The position numbers were made by a program, and so were the translations under genes. From contig CAVYEA010000012.1 of NCBI GenBank assembly GCA_963767385.1, forward strand, positions 7,450 through 71,449: a stretch of DNA of 64,000 bases, given 5' to 3'. This document shows, piece after piece, positions 16,045 to 58,808 of the stretch. The stretch is from an uncultured Actinomycetes bacterium. GTDB lineage: Bacteria > Actinomycetota > Actinomycetes > Streptosporangiales > Streptosporangiaceae. The stretch's first letter is position 1; each line of letters begins with the position of its first letter. Under the pieces are notes generated by a model, which searched no databases, was not told where the DNA came from, and was given only the letters and a program-made list of their open reading frames with translations.

Positions 16045-16113
16045 CCCCGCCGGACTCCGGCCCGCTCAGGACCCCGGCCCCCCGCCGGACTCCGGCCCGC
16101 TCAGGACCCGGCC
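16045..16113. repeat. 35-bp tandem direct repeat, 2 copies
   Basis: CCCCGCCGGACTCCGGCCCGCTCAGGACCC(C)GGCC at 16045 and 16080, one 1-nt indel between copies. Confidence 0.85.
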
Positions 16114-16143
16114 CCGCCGGGCCGCTGCTGAAATGCAGCCGGC

Positions 16144-20336: not shown

Positions 20337-20500
20337 GTCATTCCCCTGGTCCGGGCCCCGGGGAGCGTTCTTCGGACACCGCCGCCCAGGGCCACCTGCG
20401 CTGCCTCACGACGCTATTAGAACACATAATCGAATAACCCGGAAGCCGGGGCGGGCAACCGGGGCGGGACCAGCCGGCCGGCCGGCCGGCGGCCCGGAAC

Positions 20501-20542
20501 GGCCGGACCAGGACGGCCGGACCAGGACGGCCGGACCAGGAC
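20501..20542. repeat. 14-bp perfect tandem repeat x3 (GGCCGGACCAGGAC)
   Basis: Read directly; lies in the 430-bp divergent intergenic region 20337-20767. Confidence 0.9.
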
Positions 20543-20767
20543 GCCCTGCGGGGGCGAACCCGCCGCCCGCCCCCGGGCCAGGCCATCCCGCCCCGCCATC
20601 TACCTAAACACCAGCCATTAACCGCCCTTACCCGCCTATTAACACGGCCCCCGTAACGAGCGCCGGGCAGAAAAATGACACCGCTCTTACCAGCGGCGAA
20701 TTGGTCGGCTACGTTGACCCCTCAGCAGGTCTTTTCCTGCTGTTCATAAACTTCACAGGGGGCGCAT

Positions 20768-26937: not shown

Positions 26938-26954
26938 CGCCTGCTTCCCTTCTG

Positions 26955-27014
26955 CCGGATGCCCGGCGGCCCGGCCGGATGCCCGGCGGCCCGGCCGGAT
27001 GCCCGGCGGCCCGG
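26955..27014. repeat. 20-bp perfect tandem repeat x3 (CCGGATGCCCGGCGGCCCGG)
   Basis: Read directly; begins 18 nt upstream of the LLM oxidoreductase start, between it and the divergent LacI gene. Confidence 0.95.
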
Positions 27015-43700: not shown

Positions 43701-45235
43701 CAATGCCGCTAAGTTAACGATCTTGTGCAGGTCAGGCTGGGGTGCCGGGGCCGATGGGCGGGGGGCCGGTATGTTGCGGCCGTGGCTGGAGCGCAGGAGC
43801 CGCTGGGCGGCCGTCTGACTGATCACATCGCGCTGGGCGTGCTGTCGGCGGCGTTTCCCCGGGATCTGATCGAGGAGGTCCTCGACGTGACTGGGAAGCG
43901 GGAGAAACGGTCCCGGCTGCTGCCCGCTCACGTGATGGTCCGGTATGTGACCGGCCTGGGGCTGTTCTTCGGGCAGGCGTATGAGGAGGTCATGCGGCAG
44001 TTGACCGGCACGCTGCAGAGCCTGGGCTCCTGGGATCAGGACTGGAAGGTGCCGTCCACCTCGGCGATTACCCAGGCCCGGCAGCGGCTGGGAGCGGGTC
44101 CGCTCAGGGAGCTGTTCCACCGGGCGGCGGTGCCGGTCGCGGGCCTGGGCACCACGGGCGCGTGGCTGCGCGGGCGGAGGCTGATGGCTATCGACGGGAC
44201 CAGCTTTGACGTGCCCGACACCAGCGCGAACATGGCCGCGTTCGGCAAGCTGGGCAGCGGCCCCAAACAGTCAGCATTCCCGAAACTGCAGGTCGTGTCC
44301 CTGTCGGAGTGCGGCACGCATGCCCAGGTCGCCGCCGCGATGGGATCGTGCCGCGCCGGTGAGCGCGAGCTGGCCGCCCGGCTTGCCGGCCCGGTGGATG
44401 CGGACATGCTGATCACCGCGGACTCAGGGTTTTACTCCTGGCAGCTATGGGACCTTTACGCCGCGACCGGGGCGGCGCTGTGCTGGCGGGTGGGCGCGGC
44501 CGTGGCATTGCCGCTGGTCCGCCGCCTGGCGGACGGCTCCTACCTTGCGCTGATCTTCGCGCCGGGCGTCACCGCCACGCGCAAGGCCGCCCTGCTGGCC
44601 GCCGCGCGCGCCGGGGAGCAGATCGATGAGGACCGGGCCCGCATCGTGCGGGCGGCGGAATACACCGTCCCGGATCGCGGCGGCGAGGATGGCGAGCTGA
44701 TCTGCGTGATCACTACCGTCCTGGACCCGGCCGGGCTGACGGCGGCCGAGATGGCGTTCGCTTACCACCAGCGGTGGGAGCACGAGTCCGGGCTGGACGA
44801 GATCAAGACCCACCTGCGCGCGGCCGGCGGAATCCTCCGCTCCCAGTCCCCTGACCTGGTCGAGCAGGAGATGTGGGGGATCTTGCTGGCTCATTACGCG
44901 ATCCGGGAACTGATGTGCCGGGCCGCCGATGAGGCCGGGCACGACCCCGACCGGGTCAGCTTCATCCGCGCTGTCCGCATCGTCCGCCGCCAGATCGACG
45001 ATCCGGCGGCCTTTCCCCCCTGACCACCTGCCCGCCATCACCGCAGCGGCCTTCGCCGAAATGCTGGAGCGGCTCAACCCGCAGCGCCGGATGCGCACCT
45101 GCCCCCGCGTCACCAAACGCGCACGCCACAACTCCTACCGGGTCAAACGCCCCGGCGACGTGAGCGTCACCCACACCAGCCCGCCAACGATCAAACTCGA
45201 AGGCCTCCCGGCAGCGGCTTAACTTAGCGGCATTG
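43701..45235 (+). mobile_element. IS4-family insertion sequence (1535 bp)
   Basis: Perfect 17-bp terminal inverted repeats CAATGCCGCTAAGTTAA (43701-43717) / TTAACTTAGCGGCATTG (45219-45235), 10-bp direct target duplication, single transposase gene. Confidence 0.9.
43725..45222 (+). pseudogene. IS4-family DDE transposase, one frameshift in a C6 run (45015-45020)
   Basis: ORF 43725..45023 (LTDHIALGVL.., MAIDGTSFDVPDT, ITADSGFYS, YHQRWEHESGLDEIKTHL); C-terminus (DHLPAITAAAFAEMLERLNPQRRMRTCPRVTKRARHNSYRVKR..) continues in ORF ..45222. Confidence 0.85.
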
Positions 45236-47011: not shown

Positions 47012-47275
47012 CTATTCCTCGACGAGGATTACCAGGGTTTCGGGCAGCACGCCGTCGTACGCCATCGCCTCGGCCATCTTCTCCGTCTGCATCGCCGCCA
47101 TGACGGCATCCATATCGGCCACGTCCATGAGCACCGCAACCTGGGACGGATTCTGCGGGTCGACGAACGTGCGGATGTTGGTCACCCCGAGTGGCCCGAA
47201 TACCTCTTCGCGCTTCGGCGAGGAAAGCCAGTGATTCTTGTCCTTCACATTGTGATGAGCGATTACGGTAGGCAT
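47012..47275 (-). CDS. small hypothetical protein (87 aa)
   Basis: ATG start, balanced composition (MPTVIAHHNVKDKNHWLSSPKREEVFGPLGVTNIRTFVDP..); family not recognised. Confidence 0.55.
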   Translation of the reverse strand: MPTVIAHHNVKDKNHWLSSPKREEVFGPLGVTNIRTFVDPQNPSQVAVLMDVADMDAVMAAMQTEKMAEAMAYDGVLPETLVILVEE

Positions 47276-47569
47276 GGTCCCCCCTGGTTTCGTGTGGCCA
47301 GCAGTTGTAGCCTGGCGCCGCTGACCCTACACCCGCGTGCTTCTGTTTTATACCGGCCAGGCCCCTCCGGCAGGCGGTAAGGTCCGCACAATCCGCGCCA
47401 GCATGGGTGATTCGGGCGCATATCGGAAAATTCTTAGCTCATATTTAGTACTGCACCGGGCGCTTTGGGATTAGCCCGCGCGGATCAGCGGTCATACCGC
47501 AGCCAGGGGCACGCTCATCCTCCCCTGGCGCGCTCCGGCGCGCTCCGGCGCGCCCGGGCGGAACCCGTC

Positions 47570-47716
47570 CCCCGCACCCCGCACCCCGCACCCCGCACCC
47601 CGCACCCCGCACCCCGCACCCCGCACCCCGCACCCCGCACCCCGCACCCCGCACCCCGCACCCCGCACCCCGCACCCCGCACCCCGCACCCCGCACCCCG
47701 CACCCCGCACCCCGCA
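47570..47716. repeat. perfect heptanucleotide tandem array (CCCCGCA)x21; (TGCGGGG)x21 on the minus strand
   Basis: Read directly: G at 47574, 47581 ... 47714, period 7, no mismatch. Confidence 0.97.
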
Positions 47717-47734
47717 CCGACAAGATAAGCATGC

Positions 47735-47763
47735 TTGACAAATTAAATTGTCGGTGAAACAGT
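47735..47763 (+). promoter_or_regulatory. candidate promoter of the ArsR-like gene (leaderless transcript predicted)
   Basis: TTGACA (47735-47740), 17-nt spacer, AACAGT (47758-47763), ATG at 47770; bracketed by the 9-bp inverted repeat CACCGACAA (47715-47723) / TTGTCGGTG (47748-47756). Confidence 0.45.
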
Positions 47764-47769
47764 ACAGCC

Positions 47770-48358
47770 ATGCACGACGTGACCGTGATCGACGACCCCG
47801 CCGCCGCCGAGGCCTCGCTGGATCCCATCCGCGCCCGCCTGCTCGCAGAGCTGGCGGAGCCGGGGTCGGCCAGCACCCTCGCGACGCGCGTCGGGCTCAC
47901 CCGCCAGAAGGCCAACTACCACCTGCGTGCGCTTGAGCGTCATGGCCTGGTGGAGCTGGTCGAGGAGCGGCGCAAGGGCAACTGCACCGAGCGCGTGCTC
48001 CAGGCCACGGCCGCGTCCTACGTGATCTCGCCCGCCGCTCTGTCCGCGGTCGCGCCGGATCCGTCCCGGGGGCCAGACCAGCGGTCAGCGCGCTGGCTGC
48101 TCGCGGTGGCCGGCCGGCTGGTCCGGGAGGTCGGCGAGCTGATCACCCGGTCGAGCGCCGCCGGCCAGCCGGTGGCGACCCTCGGTATCGACAGCGAGGT
48201 GCGCTTCGCGTCCGCCCAGGACCGCGCGGCGTTCGCCGCTCGAGCTGGCCGAGGCCGTGAACGGGCTGGTCGCCCGGTACCACGACGAGAACGCACCCGG
48301 CGGCCGCGAGCACCGGTTCGTCGTCGCACTCCATCCCAAGATCACTAAGGAGCCCTAG
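47770..48358 (+). pseudogene. ArsR-like winged-helix regulator, one frameshift
   Basis: ..DPIRARLLAELAEPGSASTLATRVGLTRQKANYHLRALERHGLVE..; after about 48240 the sensible C-terminus (ELAEAVNGLVARYHDENAPGGREHRFVVALHPKITKEP*) is in another frame, stop 48356-48358. Confidence 0.7.
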
Positions 48359-48360
48359 TC

Positions 48361-49092
48361 ATGACACGCCAATTCGAGATCAGCCGCGAGATCGACCTGC
48401 CCGCTGCCCCCGAAGACGTCTGGACGGCGATCACCGCCGACACCGCCGCCTGGCAGTTCCCGACCGGGATGGAGATCCCCGCCGGGGCCACGCCGCCCGA
48501 GGGGGCGCCCGTCCAGACATGGGACCCGCCGCACCGGCTCGTGATCCGCATGGAGTCCCCCGACGGGACCTTCAACGCGCTGGATTACGCGATCGAGGCC
48601 CGCGGCGGCGGGACCGCGCACCTGCGCTACGTGCACAGCGGCATCCTCGCCGACGGGTGGGAGGACCAGTACGACGCCATCGGCGGCCACACGGACTTCT
48701 ACCTGCACACGCTCGGCCAGTACCTGGGGCACTTCAACGGCCGCCGGGTCACCTACGTCGGCCAGCCGTCGGCGGGGATCGAGGGCCCGAAGGCGGCGGC
48801 AGCGCCGGACGCCATGGCCACGCTGCGCGCGGCGCTCGGCATCGGTGACGACGCCGCAGTCGGCGACGCCGTCCACGCCAGCCTCGGCGACGCGGGCCCG
48901 CTCGACGGCGTCATCGACTACGTGACGCCGGAGTTCATCGGTGTGCGCACGCAGGACAGCCTCTACCGCTTCTTCGGCCGCAACCACTTTGGCAGCGTGG
49001 TCGGGATGAGCGCGCACGTGTTCCGCGACGACGTGGATGCGGCGGCCGCCGAGGCGGCGCTCAAGAGCTGGCTGGACTCCGTCTACGAGTAG
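48361..49092 (+). CDS. SRPBCC-superfamily protein
   Basis: 243 aa; MTRQFEISREIDLPAAPEDVWTAIT.. N-terminal signature; starts 3 nt after the regulator stop. Confidence 0.8.
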   Translation: MTRQFEISREIDLPAAPEDVWTAITADTAAWQFPTGMEIPAGATPPEGAPVQTWDPPHRLVIRMESPDGTFNALDYAIEARGGGTAHLRYVHSGILADGWEDQYDAIGGHTDFYLHTLGQYLGHFNGRRVTYVGQPSAGIEGPKAAAAPDAMATLRAALGIGDDAAVGDAVHASLGDAGPLDGVIDYVTPEFIGVRTQDSLYRFFGRNHFGSVVGMSAHVFRDDVDAAAAEAALKSWLDSVYE

Positions 49093-49157: not shown

Positions 49158-50086
49158 TCAGTTGGCGGCCGCGAGTCTTGCTAGCAGCGCCCTGGTCTCG
49201 TGCCTGCTCTGGCCGGGATCATCCCCGACCGGGAAGACGATGGGCCAGAACTCAGTGACGCCCAGGCCGGCCAGCCGCTCCAGCTGTTTCTCGATCTGGG
49301 CTCCGGTCCCGGTGATGGCCAGGGCACCCGGTGATGCCACCCTCTCGCGCTGAAGCAGCCGCTGGTAGTTCTCCAGCCCGGCGTACCGGGCGAACACCTC
49401 GTCGGCGGCGCGAAGGGCGGCGCCGGGCTCGTCGCAGACCGCCACCGGCAGCGCGGCCACGACCCGTGGCGCTGGCCGGCTGCGGCCGCCGCCCGCAACT
49501 GCGGGACGATGTGCTCACCCAGGGTGCGCGGGCCCGCCAGCCAGGTCACCACGCCGTCGGCGAGTTCCCCGGCGACCCGCACCATCAACGGCGAGAGCGC
49601 CCCGACCAGCACGGGCACGGGGCTGGTTCCCGGCACGGTAAAGCCCCCGTCTACCCGGTAGAAATCGCCGCGGTGACGGACGTGGCCCTCGCGCAGCAAC
49701 GGTACGAGCACCGAGAGGTACTCGCGCATGTGCGCGGCGGGCCGCTCATAGCGGATCCCGTGCAGATCCTCGATGACCGGGCGGTGCGACACGCCCACCC
49801 CGAGCGTCAGCCGGCCGCCGCAGAACGCCTGGGTGGTCGCCGCTTGCTGGGCGAGCGCCAGCGGGTGCCGCGGATACGTCGGCACGATCCCCACGCCCAG
49901 GTCGACCCGGCCGGTCCGGGTGCCCGCCACGGCCAGGACGTCAAGCGCATCCACTCCGCGCGAGAAATGCACGGACCAGGCTGAACGGAACCCGTCCGTC
50001 TCAGCGGCCACCACGTCACGCACGATGTCGTGCGGGGCCATCGGCGTCCCGACCACCTCACCGCCGACTCCCATCGCGATCCGCAT
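49158..50086 (-). pseudogene. LLM-class F420-dependent oxidoreductase, one frameshift
   Basis: ORF 49181..50137 (MRIAMGVGGEV..GVGVSH..) loses sense after ..LRAAAAAGQ; ORF 49158..49460 (..VVAALPVAVCDEPGAALRAADEVFARYAGLENYQRLL..) supplies the C-terminus; shift near 49465-49475. Confidence 0.75.
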
Positions 50087-50221
50087 GCGATCAGCATTCT
50101 GTGGCGGCCGTCCGCCAGCATCGTCACGCCGAGGCAAAACACGCCGCCCGGCTCACCCGCGGGTGGCGAGCCAGTCAGCCGGCCCCGGCGGGGCCGGGAT
50201 GGCGGCCCCGGCCGGGCCCGC

Positions 50222-58208: not shown

Positions 58209-58808
58209 ATGGTCGCGACGACTGCCGCCGAGCTGAGGATCGATGAGCCGCAGGTACGGCTGGCCGACACCGATGGCCGTGCGGCATTGCAGGTCGTCCT
58301 GGGCCAGGATGCGGTGCGCGCCCGGGCCCGGCTGCGGTTCGGCCCGGGGCGCACCTGCGAGCCGCTGGCCCGGCTTCTCGACCAGGTCATCGTGCAGGCG
58401 GAGAACGCGGGCCTGCGCCCCGAGCGGCTGATCCTGGCGTCCGGCAGCATCCAGGCCGCGGAGGACATCGTCCGGGTCCGGCGCAAGGCACACGGCAAGG
58501 CGGACTGGATCGCCAGCCCCACGTCCCGGGTGCTGATCACCCTGCAGCCGGCTGGGCTGTATGCCGCCGCGCAGACCAGCCCGGCAGCTCCCGCCGCAGC
58601 GGGCGGCGACGGCCCCGCCCCGCCGCGCGGCACCGAAGCCCTCGCACCGGAGCCGGCCGCGCGCCGCGACGCCGCGCCACCTGACACCGCGCCACCTGAC
58701 ACCGCGCCACCTGACGCTGGGCCAGGCGGATGCCGGGCCAGTGGGTGCCGCAGCCGCCGCCGTCCGCGCGGCGCTGCTCGAAGTGATCGACCCCGATCTG
58801 GGCGTTAA
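58209..58808 (+). CDS. hypothetical protein: ~125-aa unknown domain plus Pro/Ala-rich repeat tail (3' end doubtful)
   Basis: ATG 58209, 10 nt after the reductase stop, AAGGA upstream; tail after the APPDT repeats turns Arg-rich (looks out of frame) and overlaps the DUF59 frame. Confidence 0.45.
   Translation: MVATTAAELRIDEPQVRLADTDGRAALQVVLGQDAVRARARLRFGPGRTCEPLARLLDQVIVQAENAGLRPERLILASGSIQAAEDIVRVRRKAHGKADWIASPTSRVLITLQPAGLYAAAQTSPAAPAAAGGDGPAPPRGTEALAPEPAARRDAAPPDTAPPDTAPPDAGPGGCRASGCRSRRRPRGAARSDRPRSGR
58673..58717 (+). repeat. 15-bp tandem repeat x3 (CGCGCCACCTGACAC; third copy has 1 mismatch) encoding (A)PPDT repeats
   Basis: Read directly. Confidence 0.9.

Follow-up and report, generated by a model that had tools for sequence, protein, structure and literature searches.

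A perfect (CCCCGCA)21 array adjoining a conserved promoter block in an uncultured actinomycete: a candidate copy-number-variable tuning element of an ArsR-like/SRPBCC operon

The stretch of DNA analyzed here, hereafter the window, comprises 64,000 nucleotides (64 kb) from an uncultured Actinomycetes bacterium (assembly GCA_963767385.1, contig CAVYEA010000012.1, positions 7,450 to 71,449). It contains a divergent intergenic region of 494 bp (47276-47769). On one side of this region lies a gene for a highly conserved 87-aa protein; on the other lies a co-oriented gene pair, encoding an ArsR-type regulator and a probable SRPBCC-like protein (Table 1). Within the region, the heptamer CCCCGCA is repeated head to tail in a perfect array, which is accompanied by a GGCGCGCTCC mini-repeat and an AT-rich patch. 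A preliminary description had reported 21 identical units without a mismatch, a region of about 500 bp with the same two accompanying features, and distances of 18 nt to a TTGACA hexamer and 53 nt to the start codon of the regulator gene. All of this was borne out by reading the sequence and by Tandem Repeats Finder (array end, 47716; TTGACA, 47735-47740; ATG, 47770). In this study, the array was compared with its counterparts in close and distant relatives, its position was related to conserved elements of the promoter, and the explanations that can be offered for it were weighed.

Table 1. Features of the window and tandem repeats at the orthologous site in other loci. Window positions count from the first base of the window; positions in other loci are relative to the ATG.
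Feature	Locus	Position	Strand	Basis or remark
Perfect (CCCCGCA)x21 tandem array	window	47570..47716	.	bottom strand (TGCGGGG)21; sequence read, Tandem Repeats Finder
GGCGCGCTCC mini-repeat x3.2	window	47527..47557	.	Tandem Repeats Finder; also in L001; inside unconstrained spacer
CCGACAA, distal half-site, 5' block edge	window	47717..47723	+	information content rises from ~0.1 to 1.3-1.6 bits (84 loci); exact motif search
TTGACAA with -35-like TTGACA, left arm of imperfect palindrome	window	47735..47741	+	invariant, 2.0 bits
TTGTCGG, right arm of putative operator	window	47748..47754	+	conservation and motif search
AACAGT, -10-like hexamer (nAnnnT)	window	47758..47763	+	17 nt after TTGACA; ends 6 nt 5' of ATG
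ArsR-type (HTH_20) regulator gene	window	47770..48364	+	Pfam, NCBIfam, PDB, tblastn against P0021
SRPBCC/AHSA1-like protein, 243 aa, probably two domains	window	48361..49092	+	co-oriented with regulator gene
Divergent 87-aa gene, highly conserved	window	47012..47275	-	
Conserved upstream/leader region of 87-aa gene, including AT-rich patch (~47420-47452)	window	47276..47500	-	alignment with L003, L210, L207, L208
IS4-family element	window	43702-45235		transposase 43725-45023; Pfam Nterm_IS4 and DDE_Tnp_1
(CCGACA)7.3	L003	ends at -48		multiplied half-sites, about 8 copies
(CCGCGCCGCACCGC)22, 14-mer	L013	ends at -55		
(TCCCCT)6.5	L046	ends at -52		adjoins same half-site; distant locus, different neighbour
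17-mer x13.1 and 13-mer x7.7	L004			
22-mer x4.1	L008			
19-mer CGTTCCCCGAGCGGGACGG	L009 / L205	-137..-64		2.9 vs 3.9 copies, near-identical contigs
32-mer x2.3	L010			
Degenerate repeats, ~115 nt	L005 / L206			

Tandem Repeats Finder called the array at 47570-47718 (period 7, 21.3 copies, 100% matches, 0 indels), with a score of 298, the highest in the window. The called end is 47718 rather than 47716 because the CC bases that follow continue the CCCCGCA unit. CCCCGCA forms a tandem array at a single site of the window. A two-unit 14-mer probe, with at most one mismatch allowed, gave 20 matches, every one inside the array; dinucleotide-preserving shuffles gave a mean of 0.36 matches, and 20 were reached in 0/100 of them. 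The preliminary description had proposed a search for the same unit elsewhere. Beyond a 35-unit array in a near-identical strain (see below), a metagenome scan for (CCCCGCA)3 gave at least 120 sites. The 80 that were examined have unrelated flanks, a GC content of 38-76% and mostly three (53 sites) or four (20 sites) copies, with five copies at four sites and six, seven and nine copies at one site each; none of the 80 lies at an ArsR junction. Short-read assemblies would under-report long arrays in such a scan. Given the single site in the 64-kb window and the unrelated context of the 80 metagenome sites, a dispersed or mobile repeat family appears unlikely. No Rfam match was obtained at gathering thresholds in the whole window. 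Other short tandem repeats of the window include a perfect 20-mer x3.0 (26954-27014), a 35-mer x2.1 (16045-16115), a 14-mer x6.1 with 81% matches (20463-20543) and a 15-mer x3.2 (58668-58715), the majority in a very GC-rich stretch at 16-28 kb.

The array differs in length between near-identical strains. An independent metagenome contig from the European Nucleotide Archive (ENA; ERZ25039517 contig_115039, hereafter L001) encodes exactly the same 87-aa protein and is 99.1-99.3% identical to the window in the upstream flank of the array. The junction sequences are identical; 8 nt ahead of the array, the two contigs differ by a single substitution. L001 carries 35 perfect CCCCGCA units, compared with 21 in the window, a difference of 98 bp. 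An IS4-family element of the window is absent from L001; therefore, the two are distinct strains and not one assembly reported twice. A further relative, L210 (a Joint Genome Institute [JGI] contig; second copy, L211), has the same gene order and both conserved flanks, and no array. The preliminary description had called the array a slippage-prone, promoter-adjacent tract in recent or ongoing expansion and had proposed that related isolates be checked for its length. That check, run here in silico, agrees with the proposal; the lack of any difference among the units and the array-free L210 point the same way. The array thus has two traits of a contingency locus: it is a homogeneous run of head-to-tail simple-sequence units, long enough for slippage, and its length is polymorphic between otherwise identical flanks.

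Two simpler explanations of the tract were set aside. Open reading frames (ORFs) traverse the array in all six frames, for example 47465-47728, which would encode (PRTPHPA)n. A protein-coding repeat was rejected because the 98 nt by which 35 units exceed 21 cannot be divided by 3; in addition, the ORF at 47465-47728 has no homology support and stops just beyond the array. A hairpin or cruciform was rejected as well, since folding other than into G-quadruplexes (G4s) is very weak (-3 kcal/mol for the top strand and -7 kcal/mol for the bottom strand).

A 53-bp block, CCGACAA-N11-TTGACAA-N6-TTGTCGG-N15-ATG, is conserved in 84 orthologous loci. The ortholog set comprises 80 loci from genome assemblies and others from metagenomes; most are from Microflora Danica long-read metagenome-assembled genomes (MAGs) assigned to Thermoleophilia, Solirubrobacterales or 'uncultured Actinomycetes'. 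In nearly all loci, the aligned block before the start codon reads CCGACaa.a.AA....gCTTGACAAAaAtA.TTGTCGGTGagA.ggTgc..ccATG. Information content is 1.3-2.0 bits at the three heptamers and about 0.1 bit just 5' of CCGACAA. The edge of conservation is the first C of CCGACAA (47717), the base next to the last repeat unit. Hence, the array meets the 5' end of this deeply conserved block to the base, a feature absent from the preliminary description.

The block has the makings of a promoter with an overlapping operator. CCGACAA and TTGTCGG are exact reverse complements, and the imperfect palindrome TTGACAA-N6-TTGTCGG contains a consensus -35 hexamer. TTGACAA is placed 35-36 nt from the start codon in 80/84 loci. 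Within the -10-like hexamer, the orthologs share the A at -11 and the T at -7. This arrangement suggests that transcription may start at or near the ATG at 47770 and give a leaderless mRNA, and the block is probably the autoregulated operator/promoter of the ArsR-like/SRPBCC operon. A consensus promoter and terminator scan of 47200-47850 called nothing, the -10-like hexamer included; hence, the promoter assignment is based on conservation. Half-sites of the form YYGACAA/TTGTCRR were found at 47717, 47735 and 47748 only, and none in or upstream of the array at up to one mismatch. Across the spacer, conservation extends over the 100-250 nt that precede the 87-aa gene, including in loci with a different neighboring gene, and this region may be a structured leader or a regulatory region. 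As both sides of the spacer are conserved, the array and the mini-repeat take up precisely the unconstrained stretch that separates the two presumed regulatory regions.

Other tandem repeats occur at the orthologous site in relatives, which the preliminary description had missed (Table 1). A survey was made of 814 kb from 85 loci, in which a strong array was defined as at least 4 copies with a score of at least 80, and the upstream zone as the 356 nt 5' of the block, 3.7% of the surveyed DNA. Seven of the 11 strong arrays lie inside this zone, a 46-fold enrichment (binomial p=2.7e-8). The other four lie elsewhere in the 814 kb, and two of these sit within long ORFs with high GC content at third codon positions (GC3). 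When a crude coding mask was applied, the zone had seven noncoding arrays and the remaining unmasked DNA, about 209 kb, had two. The suspicion that a perfect heptamer array of this length is unusual therefore holds in the sampled data, in which strong arrays outside the zone are so few and the same unit reaches at most nine copies in the 80 metagenome matches. In an unbootstrapped neighbor-joining tree of the regulator gene, the array-free loci L210, L006, L007, L212 and L214 are placed among array-bearing loci. Since array-bearing and array-free loci are close relatives in this tree, several independent array births are indicated. Farther upstream, at about -2200, the near-identical contigs L212 and L213 differ in the copy number of an 18-mer, GCTCGTCTCAACCACGGG (2.4 vs 4.4 copies, the latter at a contig end).

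With moderate confidence, we read the array as a slippage-driven heptanucleotide variable-number tandem repeat (VNTR) in an unconstrained spacer, which acts as a contingency-like tuning element for the autoregulated ArsR-like/SRPBCC operon. The array would expand and contract through slipped-strand mispairing. It would occupy the sole unconstrained DNA (about 47520-47716) between the leader/promoter of the 87-aa gene and the 53-bp block, at a site where the DNA just 5' of the block appears to have gained tandem arrays of unrelated units repeatedly in an uncultured soil clade of Actinomycetota. The junction CCGCACCGACAA is common to the window, L003 and L013; therefore, their C-rich units probably grew from sequence adjacent to the half-site. 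Each 7-bp step would shift both the distance and the helical phase of the promoter block relative to the upstream AT-rich and divergent-promoter DNA. On this scale, three units (21 bp) would correspond to two helical turns, 21 units to 14.0 turns and 35 units to 23.3 turns. Each step would also alter the length of a stiff, G4-prone, GC-rich segment where upstream DNA would contact RNA polymerase. The outcome would be heritable stepwise variation in operon output, as at a contingency locus. The locus-level phenomenon does not require G4 folding.

Several points weigh against the tuning reading. The tract lies wholly 5' of the -35 hexamer, outside the -35/-10 spacer, and adjoins the distal half-site; on its far side, neither the 84-locus conservation nor the half-site search gave a conserved partner element. 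Thus, copy number may plausibly tune promoter geometry, as the preliminary description proposed, but not in the classical form. Length changes upstream of the -35 hexamer are usually mild in effect. The loci are not independent: one junction sequence is common to the window, L001, L003 and L013, whose arrays may descend from one ancestral array. With about four independent strong births, the binomial p rises to between roughly 2e-4 and 5e-3, the value varying with the amount of DNA taken as noncoding. Most of the distant orthologs (about 65 loci) are array-free, many of them because the upstream gene ends near the block. Finally, the copy numbers 21 and 35 are provisional, because the two assemblies appear to be Nanopore-only, both carry frameshifts, and miscalling of repeats is known.

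A related proposal, which we put forward only tentatively, is that the 53-bp block is a locus-specific 'repeat-acceptor' site, with at least five births of unrelated, copy-variable arrays 5' of the distal half-site in one clade. Its cause could be second-order selection for an evolvable tuning knob on a stress or xenobiotic-response operon of free-living bacteria, or a mutational process linked with the repressor when bound or with divergent transcription (such as fork stalling or supercoiling-driven slippage). The main rival of the tuning reading, a serious alternative although we judge it somewhat unlikely, is that the site is a neutral mutational hotspot and the arrays are functionless by-products of slippage or tandem duplication between constrained regions, tolerated there because the sequence would have no role. 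No conservation is seen upstream of the CCGACAA half-site, the units are unrelated among lineages, most orthologs and the syntenic L210 do well without an array, and the same spacer holds the GGCGCGCTCC mini-repeat. These points favor neutrality. However, other noncoding DNA of the same loci is equally unconstrained and almost array-free, the arrays of the window, L013, L003 and L046 end exactly at the half-site, and an array of 150-310 bp is a sizable insertion to keep free of cost. A further alternative is an auxiliary or decoy operator array that would bind the ArsR-like regulator and buffer or sharpen autoregulation. The unit of L003 is the half-site CCGACA itself, and the window unit can be seen as the half-site minus one base plus context; the junction reads CCGCACCGACAA. 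Nevertheless, CCCCGCA matches YYGACAA at 3/7 positions when ungapped, the half-site search found none in or upstream of the array, and the other arrays are unlike the half-site, so that we consider a decoy very improbable.

The remaining alternatives concern the structure and the reality of the tract. The preliminary description had pointed out that the bottom strand fits the canonical G4 motif, and this is correct: its 21 runs of four G are separated by 3-nt loops, with a G4Hunter score of 2.29 and five non-overlapping motifs. With a G4 term, ViennaRNA predicted five consecutive, stacked four-tetrad G4s at -153.9 kcal/mol, compared with -7.0 kcal/mol without G4s and -3.0 kcal/mol for the top strand. 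A bottom-strand G4, or a top-strand i-motif, upstream of the promoter could thus be supposed to control transcription or replication. In the twin-domain model, negative supercoiling builds up between divergent promoters, and it would be expected at this tract. Moreover, the independent array of L046, (AAGGGG)n when read on the same strand, is G4-capable. On the other hand, a canonical motif is present in only 3/86 orthologous upstream zones (the window, L001 and L046, all on the bottom strand), and the (CCGACA)n, 14-mer, 17-mer, 13-mer and 22-mer arrays of the sister loci have none. Therefore, G4 potential belongs to the CCCCGCA unit and is not a conserved feature shared at the orthologous position. 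C4 tracts, for their part, form only weak i-motifs at neutral pH. G4 potential, as modeled, may add to the instability of the array, but it cannot explain the gathering of repeats at the site, and control by such a structure is in our view unlikely and is not supported as the main explanation. An assembly or base-calling artefact, by which the tract or its length would be a long-read consensus error, had to be considered as well. Microflora Danica assemblies are Nanopore-only and were made with Flye and one Medaka round (PMC12313526), and Nanopore base-callers can miscall short tandem repeats (PMC9414165). The ERZ250395xx contigs (L001 and L003 in ERZ25039517, L004 in ERZ25039537) were placed in Microflora Danica by inference from their names; the public Nanopore reads are under PRJEB58634. 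In the window, the ArsR-like gene is frameshifted and the luciferase-like monooxygenase gene at 49158-50137 is split over two frames, and in L001 the SRPBCC gene (55-829) is frameshifted. Indel errors left in Nanopore-only assemblies are a more probable cause of these splits than pseudogene formation, and they call for caution over exact lengths in the window's contig. Against an artefact, the same unit with identical junctions stands on two independent contigs, a 98-bp difference far exceeds the typical indel error, arrays at the orthologous site are also found in short-read assemblies (L205, L009), and miscalled repeats are usually noisy and not perfect. The presence of the array is secure, and an artefactual tract is extremely unlikely.

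Among known systems, the promoter of hmw1A/hmw2A in Haemophilus influenzae is similar in that a perfect 7-bp repeat of comparable length lies in the promoter region and varies between isolates. The (ATCTTTC)n tract there has 13-24 units, and more repeats give less transcript and protein (PMC8262952). However, that tract lies between P2 and P1, overlaps the -10/-35 boxes and is transcribed from P2 into the 5' untranslated region (PMC8262952), whereas the CCCCGCA array lies wholly upstream of the only recognizable promoter. The unit is AT-rich in hmw1A/hmw2A and GC-rich here, and the gene in question is an adhesin of a host-adapted pathogen, in contrast to a regulator operon of a soil actinomycete. 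The TAAA tract of nadA in Neisseria meningitidis alters, through its copy number, expression and the spacing of distal elements (PMC2791445). Like the present array, it lies upstream of the -35 hexamer of a promoter under a winged-helix repressor, a role that is putative for the ArsR-like regulator. NadR operators flank the nadA tract on both sides, with IHF between them (PMC2791445), whereas half-sites occur here on the promoter side only. Because the far side of the array has no operator half-site, the locus is not a repressor-flanked tract of the nadA type. The (GAA)n tract of vlhA in Mycoplasma gallisepticum is likewise a simple repeat of variable length, located about 40 nt upstream of a promoter (PMC6258824). 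The cyanobacterial STRR and Beggiatoaceae TAACTGA repeats are also intergenic tandem heptamers (PMC4679880). They are genome-wide families with the same unit at many loci and few copies at each. The CCCCGCA array, in contrast, occurs once in 64 kb. The vlhA system differs from it in its trinucleotide unit, its multigene surface-antigen family and its on/off switching at an exact copy number. Mycobacterial MIRU-VNTRs are, like the array, actinobacterial intergenic tandem repeats with strain-variable copy number. MIRU units measure about 40-100 bp and are dispersed copies of one family, often inside operons; the unit here is 7 bp long, microsatellite-like and private to the locus, which places it outside that class. 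The G4 upstream of pilE in Neisseria resembles the array in having a G-rich strand with runs of at least three G near a promoter. Known bacterial promoter-proximal G4s such as that of pilE are single conserved motifs whose folding and function have been demonstrated, whereas the motif here is a long repeat that is not conserved at the orthologous site.

Promoter-linked simple-sequence repeats are classic hypermutable switches of host-adapted pathogens. Reports of them from free-living high-GC soil bacteria are, to our knowledge, scarce, and we know of none for regulator-headed operons. The present site unites length polymorphism between near-identical strains, a relative with an empty site, and repeated, independent, unrelated arrays at the same operator edge. 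Should copy number affect expression, the range of stochastic heritable tuning would come to include uncultured soil Actinomycetota, and the arrays would provide a natural allele series for the effects that the length and structure of upstream DNA have on an actinobacterial promoter. Even with neutral arrays, the site would mark a defined hotspot of tandem-repeat birth, specific to its sequence context.

The preliminary description had named the downstream genes an ArsR-like/SRPBCC pair. The first assignment is confirmed by Pfam: the regulator matches PF12840 (HTH_20; E=1.7e-13, 50.7 bits against a cut-off of 27) and thus carries an ArsR/SmtB-type winged-helix domain (HTH_20/HTH_5 above threshold). 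The NCBIfam metalloregulator models all scored below their own cut-offs on the regulator, so metal sensing is not implied. One correction is needed: the regulator ORF of the window is frameshifted near 48240 relative to the intact 195-199-aa orthologs. The listed ORF stops at 48348, and the homologous reading goes on in the next frame to about 48364. The second protein is probably SRPBCC-like, by weaker evidence than the regulator assignment. Its Pfam matches are sub-threshold, and source databases name it SRPBCC or AHSA1/START. Its AlphaFold model is of low confidence (predicted local distance difference test [pLDDT] 64), and Foldseek gave mainly START/AHSA1 matches, with the two-domain proteins DynU16 and BexL at the top. 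Exact-protein look-ups with the window's own ArsR-like and SRPBCC proteins matched no records.

The cassette of the two genes and the 53-bp block is kept as a unit. Amino-acid identity is 80-93% across MAGs labelled Thermoleophilia and Actinomycetes (the window and 84 orthologous loci). In the 3' direction, conservation extends as far as the SRPBCC stop codon, and no conserved terminal motif was found at the 3' end of the cassette. A cultured strain, Paraconexibacter sp. AEG42_29 (L072), possesses the cassette and lacks an array. The neighbors of the cassette differ at almost every locus, and some MAGs hold two copies (L011 and L051 in MFD03066.bin.2.5). Recent horizontal transfer was rejected as the reason for this variable context, since identity at third codon positions is 62-88%, which points to old divergence under strong purifying selection rather than recent spread. 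The divergent 87-aa protein has thousands of homologs at an identity of at least 88% and no match in Pfam, NCBIfam or PDB.

The IS4-family element of the window is bounded by terminal inverted repeats of 16-17 bp, (C)AATGCCGCTAAGTTAA, and its target-site duplication, CCTCAAGAGCC, measures 11 bp. Its insertion is recent, because the near-identical L001 holds the intact empty site. The element was rejected as a source of the array, as it is 2.3 kb distant, absent from L001 and unrelated to the array. In one subclade of the orthologous loci, a conserved stretch of about 400 nt without a convincing gene lies upstream of the cassette, with the AT-rich core GCAAGTGCGT.wAGCAAATAAAAT. It was seen in L004 (about 2040-2300), L206 (about 2000-2340), and L006, L007, L008 and L212-L214 (about -200 to -600 from the ATG), and could be an unannotated small gene or RNA.

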